Part shown: positions 1,677-43,339 of the stretch, in pieces
Position numbering within the stretch: position 1 is the first letter of the stretch
Layout of the letters: every line of letters starts with the position of its first letter
Position numbers and translations under genes: made by a program
DNA from: Octopus vulgaris
Taxonomy: Eukaryota
Reading direction: 5' to 3'
Assembly: GCA_951406725.2 (NCBI GenBank)
Contig: OX597837.1
Coordinates: forward strand, 43,524,001 to 43,588,000
DNA length: 64,000 bases
The notes under the pieces: model-generated
Seen by the model: only the letters and a program-made list of their open reading frames with translations
What the model was told of the DNA's origin: nothing
The model's database searches: none

Positions 1677-2274
1677 TGTGTATATCTGAAAATACATACA
1701 TACACATATTTATATATATGTATATGTATATATATATATACATATGTGTATACAAGTATATATTTTCACTTCGTTAGATGTAGTTTATCAACTAAAACGG
1801 TTTCACTCATCACCAAGCGATGGTATAATGTTTCTAATCATTGTCCATCTGCTTTTATTTTTGTTCTTATGTTGTTTTCGTCAAATTTATTCTTGTTATT
1901 GTTGTTGTTTCAATTCGTATCTGCTGTTGTTGTTATTGTCAATGTTGCTTTCTTTGCTTTTGTATTTGCTTTTTGTTGCTATTTTCTTGTTGTTATTTTT
2001 GCGTTTATTGATGTCGTTTTGTTGTTGTTGTAAGCTGTTAAAGAACAATCCCATCAGCGGCCGATGTTATTCGCTACTACTACCCACTTACGGCCGAGTA
2101 AATGGTGGCGATTAAACCAACCCTTTGCAAGTGAGAAATTTATATGTGCCTTCAGCAAAACCCACGAGAGTTGTATGAGATCCTTGAGAGTCAACTGCCC
2201 TCATATCTCGGCGAGGGGATGTGTCCAATCAGTATTACCAAAACTATTGAAATATTTATGCTGTGACACCATCA

Positions 2275-2583
2275 CTTTTACTCTTTTACTCTTTTACTTG
2301 TCTCAGTCATTTGACTGTGGCCATGCTGGAGCACCGCTTTTAATCGAGCAAATCGACCCCAGGACTTATTCTTTGAAACCCTAGTACTTATTCTATCGGT
2401 TTCTTTTGCCGAACCGCTAAGTTACGGGGACGTAAACACACCAGCACCGGTTGTCAAGCGATGTTGGGGGACAAACACAGACACACAAACACACACATAT
2501 ATATATACACAGACACACACACACGCACACATATGTATATATATACGACGAGCTTCTTTCAGTTTCCGTCTACCAAACCCACT
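2275..2583 (-). mobile_element. SINE family A copy, 5'-truncated
   Basis: Matches the 3' two-thirds of the full copies (e.g. 57707-58105), including the (AAAAGAGT)n tail. Confidence 0.9.
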
Positions 2584-2689
2584 AACGTCTGTGTCCACAT
2601 TTAGTTGTATATATAAGCACAAATATACTGAGGTTCTCTACAGCTGTTGCAGATATATTTTCTATTGATGAACAAGTCAATTACATCAT

Positions 2690-3010
2690 GCAAAAATGAC
2701 CGTGCCCTCGTCCTTATCGTTGGTGGCTCCGTGCCAGCTACTCTGCATTTTCCAAGGTGACTTCGAGTCTCTGGAGATGTTCCTTAATTATGTCCAGCCA
2801 TCTGGCACAGGGCCTAACATGGGGCCACTTCCAGCGGCCACAGCTGCCGCGACGAACGAGACTAAGGCCTTGGTGAGATGATCTGGTGAGGGGTGGAGGA
2901 CATGTTTAGACCACGCATGCGGGGGATGGCTATGAGGCGGGAGGCTGAAGGCTGCTGCAGGCGAGAAAGCAGCTCTTCTCACGGAAGGGGAAGATCCGCA
3001 TTAGTGCGAT
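2690..3010 (-). mobile_element. Degenerate RTE-clade LINE ORF C-terminus
   Basis: GC-rich island; with frameshifts the minus strand reads QQPSASRLIAIPRMR/W..HVL...WKWPHVRPCARWLDIIKEHLQRLEVTLENAE*LARSHQR*, resembling the RTE motif RLRWFGHV..WKRPRGRP..RWLD...DR..W. Confidence 0.7.
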
Positions 3011-3600
3011 TGCCAAACGAAATACAGTGTTCCTACAAGCAACTAATACCTACATAGATATTAACATTCTGGGTGTAGCATTATGCTATTATTATGGCTT
3101 GAAATATAACAGTCGTAACCGAATTTCTGCAAGCATTATACAATGGTGACAGTCTATCGTTATTTAGCCTTATTACTTCATTATGCGTGTACGTGTATTT
3201 GTAAGTATACACGTATATGTCTACACATTTATGTATGTATGAACGCACGCATATATGTAACAATGTATGTATCTATAATGTATATATATATGCATGCACG
3301 TAGGTATATATGAATGCATCTGTATGCATGTATATGTTTGTATGCTTATTTATATGCATGCCTACATATACTTACGTAGCTATATATGAATATGAATCTA
3401 TCTGTATATGTTTGTATGTCTATTTATATGAGTGTAGGTATGTACGAAAATTTGTAGGTATATGTGTCTCTGTATGAATGTATGTATATGCACATATACA
3501 TATAAGTGCATGTATGTATTTATGCATTTATGTATATGTATATATATATATATATTTTTTTCCCTCTGTCTTCCGTTCTCGGGATCTTTCCTTCTCCTAT

Positions 3601-3635
3601 GCTTCCGACGAAGAGCTCCGCTCGAAACGTTAAAC
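3601..3635 (+). ncRNA. Variant minimal hammerhead-like motif in a Penelope-type repeat module (~3556-3738)
   Basis: GCTT-CCGACGA-A-GAGC-TCC-GCTC-GAAA-CG-TT-AAAC; related to 27035 and 62374; core has U4>C. Confidence 0.5.
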
Positions 3636-3835
3636 CCTCCTTCTTCCCTTCTTTCCTGAGCGTCCAATAATACTTTATTTGTTCCACGTCCTCACGTTGC
3701 TGTGTTTTTTTTTGTGTTTTCTTGTTTGGATTAACTATGTATATATATATGTATATATGTATATGCATGTATATCTAAACACACGCATACAGACATATAT
3801 GTATATAGATATACATATATATATATATGTATATG

Positions 3836-3867
<32 letters not shown>

Positions 3868-4224
3868 TGTATGTATGTATGTATGTATGTATGTATGTAT
3901 GTATGTATCTATGTATGTATCCCATATGACAAGCAAAGTGATATAAAACGAACATTAAACAAGAGAATCAACAATTCTGGAATCAAATTACACCATAATT
4001 ATAATTAATTACATCTGTCTTCGTTTTCTTAATTCGATTCCTTATTTGCTCAAACGATTTTCCAGCCAATCAAATACTTTGAATCAGTTTTCGCGTTCAA
4101 AAAGGTCCTTTTTTTTTCAGTTCAGCTCAATTAGTTTTAATCAACGAAGAAATCCGGTTGCCTATTTCCTACTTAATTCCGCGCTGCCGCCATGACTGTA
4201 GCGGCTGCCGATGATGCAGTGACT

Positions 4225-9412: not shown

Positions 9413-9966
9413 TATATGTATAGATATATACACGCACAAACGCATACATGTATAAAGACACCAGCAAATGTATATTTACACAATAATATAAATACTATAT
9501 ATATGCATATACGGGTACAGGACGTCACCAACAGTAAACAACATGAAATACGAAAACAACTGAGTTAAATACGCAAATAACGAGAAGCAAAAAATGGGAA
9601 ACAAGACAAGTAATAAAAAGAAAACAAAGAACGACCCTTCATCAGTTGTCGGCTGTCTATCTACTCCCCATTTCGAGCCAGTATATGTGTGTGTACTCTG
9701 CATACCATTTTAGACTCTGGTTTTTCTGTTAAAATAATGATTTTTAATAATGTTAATGTAATATATTATTTTAAAACATTGATTTCTATTTATTCATTCG
9801 TGCTAATGTGTTTGCTGTTATTATTTATTAGTATATATGATTCTCGGTTGAATTATTGGTGAAACACAAATAGGAAAAGAAAATTCGATTGCATTCATTT
9901 TATGAATTAAAAATAAAACTGAAACCTCAAAAAATCGACCGACCATCTCGAAATATATATATATAT

Positions 9967-10050
9967 ACATAATAAATAACATTAGGGTAATAAGAAGTAT
10001 ATAAATTATTATTACCTGTGGCCTTATTACCCTAATGTTATTTATTATGT
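9967..10050. repeat. Perfect inverted repeat (28-bp arms, 28-nt spacer) at the start of a hammerhead-bearing module
   Basis: ACATAATAAATAACATTAGGGTAATAAG (9967-9994) vs its reverse complement at 10023-10050. Confidence 0.9.
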
Positions 10051-10205
10051 TTAAATACTTGTTGATAAATTTGTTCGAAAGTTTACCGGCATTCCCTCTG
10101 TCGCCGGATATAATCTGCATCTGCGAAGTGGTTTGAAAAGTTAGGATATACAGACAGCTAGTTTACATGTCGATCGAGTAGTGTGTATATTTGAATTCTA
10201 AAGGC

Positions 10206-10277
10206 TTCCTACTGATGAAAACTAGCCTTAGTAAATATTTTTTTTACTGGAATTAGTTAGAAACCATGGTCTAGGAA
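10206..10277 (+). ncRNA. Type I hammerhead ribozyme motif, minimal stem III (Penelope/retrozyme type)
   Basis: Stem I TTCCTA/TAGGAA; core CTGATGA (10212-18) and GAAA (10260-63); extended stem II (AACTAG/TTAGTT, TTAGTAAA/TTTACTGG) with an A.A mismatch at 10.1-11.1; stem III C-CATG-G with palindromic loop; GTC cleavage triplet (cut after 10271). Confidence 0.8.
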
Positions 10278-10413
10278 CTAAATGAGATAGTAAACGTTTT
10301 TAATTTTCCTTCCTTTCGAGAATTTGTCCCTAATTAATGGTTTGCGTATTCTATTGCTCTTTCTAGCACAAGGCTTTCCTATTTCGAAGCCTCTTGATGT
10401 GTTTTATTGTACA

Positions 10414-10463
<50 letters not shown>

Positions 10464-10466
<3 letters not shown>

Positions 10467-10760
10467 GTATAAAGAAAGGAAAAATTGTAGGTGTAGACGA
10501 TCTTTAATTCATAATCGAGGTTGGTACATAACCAGTACACATTCTACATAATTTATGATTTAGTATTCTACGCTGAAGAGAAAAGAAGTTTGGGTAACGT
10601 AGAATTATTTAATATTTAATTCTCATGCTTTCCTAAAAACTTGATTTCGAAACGTGCGTCCGTAGATAACTTAAAATTGTATGATAGATTGCCGTCAATT
10701 CATTCTCTCTTACTAATTGCTGTGTTTTTTATAGCTGCTATTTCTAAATATTTATTGCTT

Positions 10761-10815
<55 letters not shown>

Positions 10816-10874
10816 TAAGAAAGGATAAAATTGTAGGTGTAGACGATCTTTAATTCATAATCCAGGTTGGTACA
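10464..10874 (+). repeat. ~65-bp direct repeat (10464-10528 and 10810-10874) bracketing the second hammerhead
   Basis: AAATTGTAGGTGTAGACGATCTTTAATTCATAATC..GGTTGGTACA in both copies, each following a (TA)n run. Confidence 0.9.
10567..10666 (+). ncRNA. Type I hammerhead ribozyme motif with canonical core
   Basis: Stem I TCTACG/CGTAGA; CTGAAGA (10573-79); stem II GAAA/TTTC plus AAGTTT/AAACTT (G10.1-C11.1); GAAA 10649-52; stem III C-GTGC-G; GTC triplet (cut after 10660). Confidence 0.85.
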
Positions 10875-11867
10875 GATCCAATATGAATTCTACAAATTGT
10901 TTCAGAGTCTAATAGCAGACATGTATATACATACATACATACATATATATACATATATACACACAAATACACGAATGCTTCATAGATATACATATAGCAA
11001 TATTATCTTCGAACAATTTTTATTTATTAAAGAATATATATACATACACACGTACGCTCACACACACACACACGCGCGCGCACGCCCCAAAATGCATACA
11101 TATATCCATCCAGTGATACATACATACAGACATGAAAACAAACAAACTTACATATAATTCGCTAGCGCTGAAACTTCGGTCATGCAAACCAGTAAGTTAT
11201 AACAACATAATGCATTTATTTGACTATTGGTACACTGAGAAAAAAAAAGGGGTGGGGAATAGCAAAGGAACAGCAGAGAAAAACTACGAGAAGTTTAATC
11301 GTTAAAGATGATCAGTCACATTAGGTGTTGATTGGTGCAGGTTTCAAAATTACGTCTATGCGTGTTGCTCAAAACGGTGCAAATGGAATTTAACCAGCAG
11401 AACATTATCGATGTAAATGTAAATGTGAAAAATAGAGTCGAGCTAAATTGTGAAATGCCACCTTTTTTTCTGCGAAAAATTTTGCTTAAAAATTTTTTAG
11501 GAATGATGCATGCAGTTCTCTACTAAATATTTGTTGTGGTTGCATACATTTGTAAATATATATTCGTATCTCCTCCTCCCCCTCCTCTTCCTTTTTTCGT
11601 CTTTTTTTCTTCTTCTTCTCCTCCTCCTCCTCCTTCTTCTTCTTTTCCTTATTCTTCTATTTCTTCTTCTTCTTTCCATTCGTGTAGTTGTTGTAGTTGT
11701 TGCTTTCTTTTGAATCATTATCTTTATCTCCTTTTTGATCATGTAGTAGTAGTAGTAGTAGTAGTAACAGCAGCAGCAACAGCAGCAATATTAGTTGTAA
11801 TAGCAGCAGCAGTAGTATTTGTTGTTATTGTAGTTGTTCCACATTAAATAATCATATAAAATAACAG

Positions 11868-25663: not shown

Positions 25664-26920
25664 CAAGGTGCGGTGAACAAATTGTCGCCTATATCATAAA
25701 AAATTGAAAAGAACATTACATATCATTTTAACAGATTTACCAAAATTACCTACAAAATATCTTGAAATATCAATGAGTAAATACATTCAATAAAATCACC
25801 ATCAGCTTCTACCACGGCCTGCAGACGACATCGGAAACTTCTGCAAATCTTCTGAACGCTCTCATTGTTTAAGTTGGCCAATGCCTTCACTTCATCTTTG
25901 GTGTTACAAGAAGTTTTGTTGGTCGCTCGCTCAACTGCGCCCCACATTTAATTATGAAGGGGGTTGCAGTCTTGGGAGATAGGTAGCCAGATGGGTGATG
26001 TGGTCGCAGAAATTGTCTGACAGCCATGACTGGGTTTTCCTGCTTGTGTGGCATGGGGTAGCATCCTGTTGCCAGAGATAGAGTCTTCCTGCAGCCACCC
26101 TCTTCGCCGAGAGCAGCACTACCTTACCCAAGTACTTGATATAGGCTTCCGTGTTGTATGTGAGGCTGTGTGGGAAAATGAATGGAGGCATAACGTCGCC
26201 ATCACTAGTGATCATTCCAGATACAATGATGTTGACTCGATATTTGATTTTTATCAATCTCGGTACATGTTTTGGGGACACTGCAAGCCAACGGTTTCTC
26301 TTTGTGTTCACCATCTGAGAAGAACCAACGCATGGTCGGTTGGAGAGGATGCTTGAGTTTGTTGAAAACCTTCGTAGCGCGGTCTTTCGTCTGGTCCTTG
26401 ATGGTTTTGGATAAAAATTGGCCCTCTCTCATCTTGTATGAGGAATAGGAATCTCGAATGTCTCCATGCACTACTTGCTTGATAAGAAGTTTAGACACTC
26501 CCATCTCCTTGGTGGTGGACCTGATTGACTTGGAAGGATCGTTGTCAATCATGCCCTGTATTTCACCAACAAATTCAGCTGTTCTTTTCTTATCAGACCA
26601 ATCAGAGTGAGTCTTCTGAGCTATCCTACTTTCATAATTACTATTATACTCACCGACCTCTTTCCGAATTCTCTGCAAAGTCCTCCAATTGACACCCAAA
26701 CACTCTGAAATGTTCGTAATAGAGATTCCGGTGAGAATGCCAAGCAACACAGAATGTAGATTCCAAATTTCTGGCGGAGCGAATTGATGTTGGCTTTCTC
26801 TCAGACGGTGCCCAACTGAACCTGCTATACTGTGTAGTCGATAAAATAAAAATAAAAAGACAAAGTGCATGCGCGAAAATAAAACTATAGAATAACGAAA
26901 ATTTCACCCATCGTACCCTG
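25664..26920 (-). mobile_element. Near full-length Tc1/mariner-superfamily element, DD37D/maT-like, frameshifted
   Basis: TA|CAAGGTGCGGTG ... CATCGTACCCTG|TA imperfect TIRs; ORFs 26205..26870 (DPSKSIR..WFFSD), 25952..26314 (WQQDATPCHTSRKTQ), then SPDCNPL and 25750..25947 (WGAVE..CRSFRCRLQAVVEADGDFIE). Confidence 0.9.
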
Positions 26921-42836: not shown

Positions 42837-43332
42837 AAGGAGGCGAGCTGGCAGAATCGTTAGCACGCCGGGCGAAATGCTTTGCGGTATTTCGTCCGCC
42901 GCTGCGTTCTGAGTTCAAATTCCGCCGAGGTCGACTTTGCCTTTCATCCTTTCGGGGTCGATAAATTAAGTACCAGTTACGCACTGGGGTCGATGTAATC
43001 GACTTAATACCTATGTCTGTCCTTGTTTGTCCCCTCTGTGTTTAGCCCCTTGTGGGTAATAAAGAAATAGGTATTTCGTCTGCCGTTACGTTCTGAGTTC
43101 ATATTATGCCGAGGTCAACTTTGCCTTTCATCATTTCGGGGTCGATAAATTAAGTACCAGTTACGCACTGGGGTTGATATAATCGACTCAATCCGTTTGT
43201 CTGTCCTTGTTTGTCCTCTCTGTGTTTAGCCACTTGTGGGTAGTAAAGAAAGGTATTTCGTCTGCCGCTACGTTCTGAGTTCATATTATGCCGAGGTCAA
43301 CTTTGCCTTTCATCCTTTCGGGGTCGATTAAA
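42837..43332 (+). mobile_element. SINE family B head-to-tail multimer (one full unit and two 5'-truncated units)
   Basis: Unit 1 starts AAGGAGGCGAGCTGGCAGAATCGTTAG; units 2 and 3 restart at GGTATTTCGTCTGCCG (~43070, ~43252); each has GCCTTTCATCCTTTCGGGGTCGATAAATTAAGTACCAG-like sequence. Confidence 0.92.
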
Positions 43333-43339
43333 TAACCGA

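Follow-up and report, generated by a model that had tools for sequence, protein, structure and literature searches.

Animal non-LTR retrozymes are non-coding repeats of low GC content in which each unit carries a type-I hammerhead ribozyme, and they occur as tandem copies alongside Penelope-like elements (PLEs) (Cervera and de la Pena 2020, PMC7229834; Li, Clavereau and Pollet 2026). Their units measure 170-400 nt in one account (PMC7229834) and 51-972 nt in another (bioRxiv 10.64898/2026.07.22.740005). According to the retrozyme model, RNAs cut by the ribozyme are ligated by the host into circles, which are then copied into tandem cDNA (PMC7229834). An origin of retrozymes from PLEs has been argued in a study whose cited text includes no molluscs in its sampling (bioRxiv 10.64898/2026.07.22.740005). 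PLEs typically insert with an inverted truncated arm, often with a tail at one end, and show a bias for TA targets (PMC8557442). Priming has been found to take place internally at two sites, with both DNA strands cut and extended, and uncut read-through RNA was the main in vitro substrate for a Poseidon element (PMC11167929). The terminal repeats (pLTRs) of PLEs may contain hammerheads with a short stem III and a palindromic loop that work as dimers (Cervera and de la Pena 2014, PMC4209133), among them a minimal U3-A8 variant known from schistosome PLEs (PMC4209133).

We examined a 64,000-nt stretch of the Octopus vulgaris genome (contig OX597837.1, positions 43,524,001 to 43,588,000; hereafter, the window), in which a preliminary description had reported two adjacent hammerheads as a candidate self-cleaving RNA system. 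With a probability of roughly 85%, the locus is a (TA)n microsatellite that received separate insertions of three non-coding hammerhead repeat families, A, B and C, which are likely retrozymes pasted in by Penelope-type (Neptune-like) RT/GIY-YIG enzymes. Since the two same-strand hammerheads belong to separate insertions of different families into one (TA)n tract, they are likely chance neighbors. The three families are likely to be animal non-LTR retrozymes, a known kind of element, and not parts of a two-ribozyme device.

A type-I descriptor applied to both strands of the 64 kb returned exactly two matches, compared with a mean of 0.04 in 50 local mononucleotide shuffles. Both lie on the plus strand, as originally described: HH1, in family A, at 10206..10277 and HH2, in family B, at 10567..10666. 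HH1 consists of stem I UUCCUA/UAGGAA, the CUGAUGA box, a 41-nt stem II region and GAAA-C-CAUG-G-UC, with a palindromic stem III loop (ACCAUGGU) and a predicted cut after 10271. HH2 combines stem I UCUACG/CGUAGA with CUGAAGA, a 69-nt stem II region and GAAA-C-GUGC-G-UC, and its predicted cut falls after 10660; the reported cut positions, 389 nt apart, were confirmed. Both have the type-I order of the CUGANGA/GAAA/NUH core with pairable stems I-III. The base of stem II is a canonical G10.1-C11.1 in HH2 and an A.A mismatch (10.1:11.1) in HH1, the latter common to most family A copies; the corresponding mismatch in axolotl HHR_Amex2 is U.U (PMC7229834). The loop GUGC of HH2 is replaced by GUAC in sister subfamilies.

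No Rfam family reached its gathering score in the window, and the hammerhead model RF00163 recognized HH2 below its cut-off of 34 (21.2 bits, E 0.047) and gave no hammerhead match for HH1. The stem II of both motifs is much longer than the 45-position RF00163 model accommodates. Matches to miRNA-type Rfam families at the E-value threshold were dismissed, as they fell on TA repeats and on the family A palindrome. Neither motif folded better than its shuffled counterparts (z of -0.35 for HH1 and -1.52 for HH2), and the active hammerhead fold was predicted to lie 3.7 (HH1) and 2.1 kcal/mol (HH2) above the minimum free energy. An alignment of five complete rows, comprising B and an 81%-identical sister family, contained one compensatory change in stem I (U-A to C-G; 1 of 31 pairs), along with the GUGC to GUAC change in loop III. 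Other families have the same hammerhead fold with unrelated stems.

The two hammerheads had been assigned to separate families, and this holds. The repeat unit of A (taken from locus L026) is 477 nt long, and that of B 596 nt. Self-BLAST (palindrome at 9960-10057) and arm mapping resolved the A insertion into a short inverted arm at 9967..10022 (minus strand) and a main arm at 10023..10416 (plus strand), the latter running from A146 through the end of the unit to A70. The 3' end of the short arm, which recurs in many A copies, is at the downstream site of A (about A173-181) and touches (TA)n at 9955-9966; that of the main arm is at the upstream site and is again followed by (TA)n. Because the two sites are used once each, the downstream one by the minus arm and the upstream one by the plus arm, the window A copy is a complete two-armed insertion by itself. 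A repeat scan placed a (TA)24 tract at 10416..10463, between the A insertion and a composite of C and B, and a (TA)27 tract at 10763..10817.

The composite, at 10464-10762, consists of a family C fragment, C1 (10464..10544, minus strand), and a family B arm (10548..10762, plus strand), joined tail to tail with TA outside both and none between them. C1 has its 3' end inside (TA)n and its 5' end at, or up to 9 nt upstream of, the predicted C cut site; the placement of the C1/B junction is ambiguous up to 10553. Positions B1-167 of the B arm are near-identical to those of young copies, after which come four internal deletions and a 3' end at the upstream site of B (about B307-311), followed by (TA)n. 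A second C fragment, C2 (10818..10914, minus strand), is 88% identical to C1 and keeps the 3' half of the hammerhead alone (GAAA, stem III, GUA), without CUGANGA. Both modules, at 10464-10544 and 10818-10914, correspond to the 3' portion of a third type-I hammerhead family and lie on the minus strand. The two-family reading stands for A and B on the plus strand, while two antisense C fragments had been overlooked, and the (TA)n run described as the divider between HH1 and HH2 is present but shares that space with one of them.

No RT or GIY-YIG open reading frame was found at the locus. A Pfam scan of 62 of the 142 candidate frames in the window yielded nothing above the cut-off and one weak EBP match within a TATC repeat. 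Elsewhere in the window, short frames at about 33800-33300 and 26200-26900 (both minus strand) resemble what we take to be LINE and Tc1/mariner debris, and a 184-nt unit from a common interspersed repeat is present in 2.4 tandem copies at 42886-43333.

The three families differ in age. Complete C hammerheads were found at loci L067, L072, L073, L077, L080, L081 and L087. Family C appears old: no two sampled copies exceed 92.5% identity, and of 213 candidate copies, the closest to C1 among the 40 that were scored matches it at 93%; a 26-mer of the C1 variant is unique in the genome at one mismatch. Copies of the HH1 region are dispersed, with 90-97% identity (40 scored of 377 candidates), and an HH1 20-mer has 37 exact genomic copies. 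The mean identity of sampled A copies is 90.9%, and the window copy is 93.75% identical to the closest of them; A appears to be an older repeat family than B. As in B, two sites account for most A arm ends, which fall at about A70 or A170-181 and usually adjoin (TA)n. The longest A arms reach about 1.5 units, and no two full same-strand A units were found in 30 loci of about 3 kb (out of at least 377 candidates).

Family B is, judged from its copies, very young and near-identical. Its HH2 22-mer has 436 exact genomic copies, as opposed to none for the same 22-mer read backwards; the top B copies are 98-99% identical, and a query of C plus B returned 1,355 first-look candidates. The unit occurs in tandem and tail-to-tail arrays within (TA)n. 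We mapped 101 arms at 68 loci, drawn from the top sequence matches and the first 100 of the 436 22-mer places (locus L204 was left out as a duplicate and one copy in L203 was counted; L187 and L188 remain segmental duplicates). Ninety of these arms are followed by TA. Their 3' ends fall at B300-322 in 60 arms, at B400-430 in 33 and elsewhere in 8. Half of the arms (50/101) exceed one unit and 9 exceed two; the longest measures 2,566 nt, and pure arrays reach 4.3 units. The predicted cut site is crossed by 90 of the 101 arms, a count that is inflated because loci were picked for holding the ribozyme 22-mer. Among 33 tail-to-tail pairs, the two arms used one site each in 25, the upstream site twice in 2, the downstream site twice in none and other ends in 6, a pairing that departs from independence (p 2.8e-5). 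The 5' ends are scattered, with 3 of 101 lying within 1 nt of the predicted cut site (p 0.015; a post hoc, weak signal); similarly weak post hoc cases are A at L024 and C at L084 and L085.

The window B copy is identical to that at locus L061 over about 150 nt before its four deletions begin, and the first deletion junction is unique in the genome. A mobile subfamily of deleted B, or of C plus B, was rejected on the basis of single genomic matches. Internal jumps were also seen in other B copies, at L059 (about 2277-2320), L038, L161, L166, L195 and L201; the patchwork 3' end at L059 resembles that of the window copy and suggests template skipping soon after priming. At L035:111-271, three B scraps of 27-37 nt in alternating orientation, with (TA)n between them, flank a B array.

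The arrangement of C1 and B raises the question of whether a single insertion event copied both, each from an RNA of its own primed at a different end of the cut DNA; in its fuller version, a hammerhead-cut linear C RNA was copied at one end and a B RNA at the other. The tail-to-tail order with (TA)n outside and none between, the position of the C1 end, no more than 9 nt from the cut predicted for C, and the repeated template skipping in the B arm would all suit such an event. If true, it would mean that Penelope-type inverted arms can come from two templates on a dimeric enzyme and that the ribozymes cut in vivo. The ages of the parts point the other way, as B is near-identical to young copies while C1, with its unique 26-mer, has no scored relative closer than 93% in a family whose sampled copies are at most 92.5% alike. 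In addition, both arms end at the upstream site, a combination found in 2 of the 33 B pairs. At 69 other loci, B was never joined to an arm of A or C, and contact of a B 5' end with non-TA DNA is not peculiar to this junction (e.g., L051, L057, L164, L170 and L200). We consider a joint origin quite improbable, in the general form and in the version with a ribozyme-cut C RNA alike, and prefer separate insertions.

The preliminary description had further suggested that a read-through transcript could release a circularizing RNA of about 390 nt. The piece between the predicted cuts is made up of A sequence, (TA)24, antisense C and deleted B, parts of different age, and the proposed system is not supported by this dissection. 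Two intact cores do lie on one strand at a distance of 389 nt, and hammerheads with a 2-bp stem III can cut partly as monomers (22% for axolotl HHR_Amex2; PMC7229834), so that the two might still act together to excise an RNA with its own role. Yet the B deletion junction and the C variant each occur once in the genome, with no sign of spread. Pairing of the loops was predicted at -12.6 and -10.2 kcal/mol for the homodimers, as opposed to -4.3 for the A/B heterodimer, which matters because a matching partner is believed to be required when stem III is so short (PMC4209133). Comparable same-strand pairs of mixed families, about 500 nt apart, are also found at L014 and L194. A cooperating pair with a product of its own is therefore the least probable of the readings considered here. 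Some 389-nt RNA could form if the plus strand of the locus were transcribed, but nothing suggests a role for it; the piece is likely a chance by-product.

Neighboring hammerheads are common around these families. In a relaxed scan, which includes some weak motifs and from which one B variant, one A variant and one doubtful A match were dropped, a hammerhead-like motif of another family was present at 11 of 69 B, 3 of 29 A and 3 of 23 C loci. Loci L160, L181, L014, L194, L165 and L085 hold at least four more long type-I hammerhead families, no farther than about 1.5 kb from a copy of A, B or C; the core of one of them reads CCGAUGA. Separately, and likewise overlooked before, window positions 9505-9690 (minus strand) hold a 5'-truncated copy of an abundant repeat family in which GAAA precedes CUGAUGA; this copy is without the cleavage block. 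Fuller copies (L099, L043, L076, L079, L102, L126 and L139) have the block order cleavage, GAAA, CUGANGA, with stems I and III that differ between subfamilies and pair by eye. The same block order characterizes type-SGC permuted hammerheads, none of which were reported from genomes of known organisms in the cited text of PMC10085705.

Intact Penelope-type frames, of 775 and 781 codons, are numerous in the genome. Pfam domains RVT_1 and GIY-YIG were identified in the 775-codon protein. As read from the sequences, the linker before the nuclease is cysteine-rich and matches the description of Neptune/Nematis in PMC8557442; "Neptune-like" denotes this resemblance. The Penelope copies that we inspected end in (TA)n. 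In 64 endonuclease (EN)-bearing Penelope loci, out of thousands of candidates, the 3' regions had no homology to A, B or C, setting aside independent insertions close by, and the upstream part of B, used as a query for a parent, matched B copies alone (40 scored of 1,671). A Penelope fragment 500 nt downstream of a B dimer (L048/L061) was rejected as the parent, being a separate insertion with its own ends; TA-rich repeats divide it from B. With no sequence shared with the 64 loci, the case for a partner acting in trans is built on the target and the insertion geometry instead of homology. The earlier label of Penelope-derived retrozymes is upheld for the retrozyme-like repeats, the Penelope-type insertion structure and the (TA)n target, while descent in sequence is not borne out at these 64 loci. 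The linked Penelope RT/GIY-YIG frame that it led one to look for was found neither at the locus nor, as a remnant, at the mapped B 5' junctions.

Among the sampled autonomous elements, the 3' regions at L127-L152 (e.g., L129:2761, L133:2352 and L139:2460) belong to Neptune-like Penelope families with a minimal U3-A8 hammerhead (core UUGAUAA...GAAACAUGU). In a young Penelope copy at L118, a 557-codon frame with no Pfam match (275-1945) overlaps and precedes the intact 775-codon RT and GIY-YIG frame (1858-4182); a hammerhead scan of this copy found none.

A and B could also be detached pLTRs of unsampled autonomous Penelope families, copied from uncut read-through RNA with the hammerhead playing a minor part. 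Their insertions have the geometry known from PLEs (PMC8557442), the reaction in vitro used mainly unprocessed RNA (PMC11167929), A arms longer than 1.5 units are rare, and the search for a parent took in 64 PLE loci. Against this, pure B arrays extend to 4.3 units, no mapped 5' junction of B holds an ORF remnant, and the sampled autonomous elements carry the quite different minimal U3-A8 motifs, or none by our scans. The few 5' ends at predicted cut sites (3 of 101 in B and the single A and two C cases) weigh slightly in the same direction, post hoc and weak as they are. A pLTR origin of this kind is unlikely, though somewhat less so than the other alternatives, and we favor retrozymes mobilized in trans.

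As in retrozymes, A and B are dispersed, multi-copy, non-coding units of low GC content (33% and 35%, respectively) with a type-I hammerhead. As in Penelope-dependent elements, they form partial tandem and inverted arms with a tail at one end and a microsatellite target. An autonomous Penelope would bear an RT and GIY-YIG frame, whereas the longest open frames in the circular units of A and B span 53 and 57 codons. The two fixed 3' sites of B, together with the half of its arms that exceed one unit, are likely the footprint of a Penelope "tail" on circular or multimeric RNA. Arms of up to 4.3 units could fit a circle and could equally fit uncut multimers or read-through transcripts.

A plausible course of events, in which cleavage, ligation and the enzyme are all inferred, is as follows. 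Tandem copies would be transcribed, and their hammerheads would cut, best as homodimers in cis, to give unit-length RNA that is probably ligated into a circle. A borrowed Penelope enzyme would cut (TA)n and start reverse transcription within the RNA at either of two fixed sites, a different one for each DNA end. Synthesis would run past the ribozyme site, producing more than one unit, and two truncated cDNAs would join back to back. At the locus described here, the C scraps likely came first, followed by A and then B, the youngest; four skips may have occurred in the copying of B shortly after priming, and the 5' end of B would have joined the C1 scrap already in place.

The matches in public sequencing runs are contigs, and no run holding them is listed as RNA. 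A joint that "goes back 596" in contigs of four runs guessed to be RNA, which cover the B unit, was rejected as evidence for circles because tandem DNA gives the same joint. Against the window A copy, four runs gave mostly pieces of 85-95% identity and one of the four gave none, an outcome that speaks neither for nor against expression.

With animal non-LTR retrozymes, these families share the hammerhead-bearing non-coding unit, the tandem copies (in B) and the co-existing PLEs. They differ in that the units are 477 and 596 nt long, beyond the smaller of the published size ranges though within the larger, and that stem II is long (41-69 nt). Neither strict targeting of (TA)n nor arms joined tail to tail nor two fixed 3' sites are described for retrozymes in the cited text of PMC7229834 and bioRxiv 10.64898/2026.07.22.740005. 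Known repeats were matched by 24 of 57 Xenopus retrozyme families, as opposed to no pLTR parent here (64 loci). With EN+ Neptune-type PLEs (Craig et al. 2021, PMC8557442; Frangieh et al. 2024, PMC11167929), they share partial tandems, an inverted 5'-truncated arm, a tail at one end, a microsatellite bias and internal priming at two sites, but A and B have no ORF. Here, about 100-110 nt separate the two sites, as opposed to 30-40 nt in EN+ PLEs (PMC8557442, PMC11167929), and the near-strict rule of one site per arm in B contrasts with the lack of a strand difference in the in vitro data on Poseidon (PMC11167929). The hammerheads resemble those of PLE pLTR dimers (PMC4209133) in their short stem III, palindromic loop and predicted homodimers; HH1 and HH2 are, however, canonical C3-G8 motifs with a 2-bp stem III, whereas the minimal U3-A8 variant of that study sits in the autonomous elements of this genome.

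A search of openly accessible papers turned up no account of retrozymes in cephalopods and none of a rule of one site per arm, and the words "retrozyme" and "hammerhead" occur 0 times in the main text of an octopus repeat annotation (PMC13282606). The locus itself is ordinary repeat clutter, and the useful product of its analysis is family B. Its footprint combines two fixed priming sites, one per arm, with copying past the ribozyme site, in a genome that also holds intact candidate enzymes. Together, the footprint and the candidate enzymes make the proposed, as yet unproven mobilization of animal retrozymes by Penelope testable in vitro.
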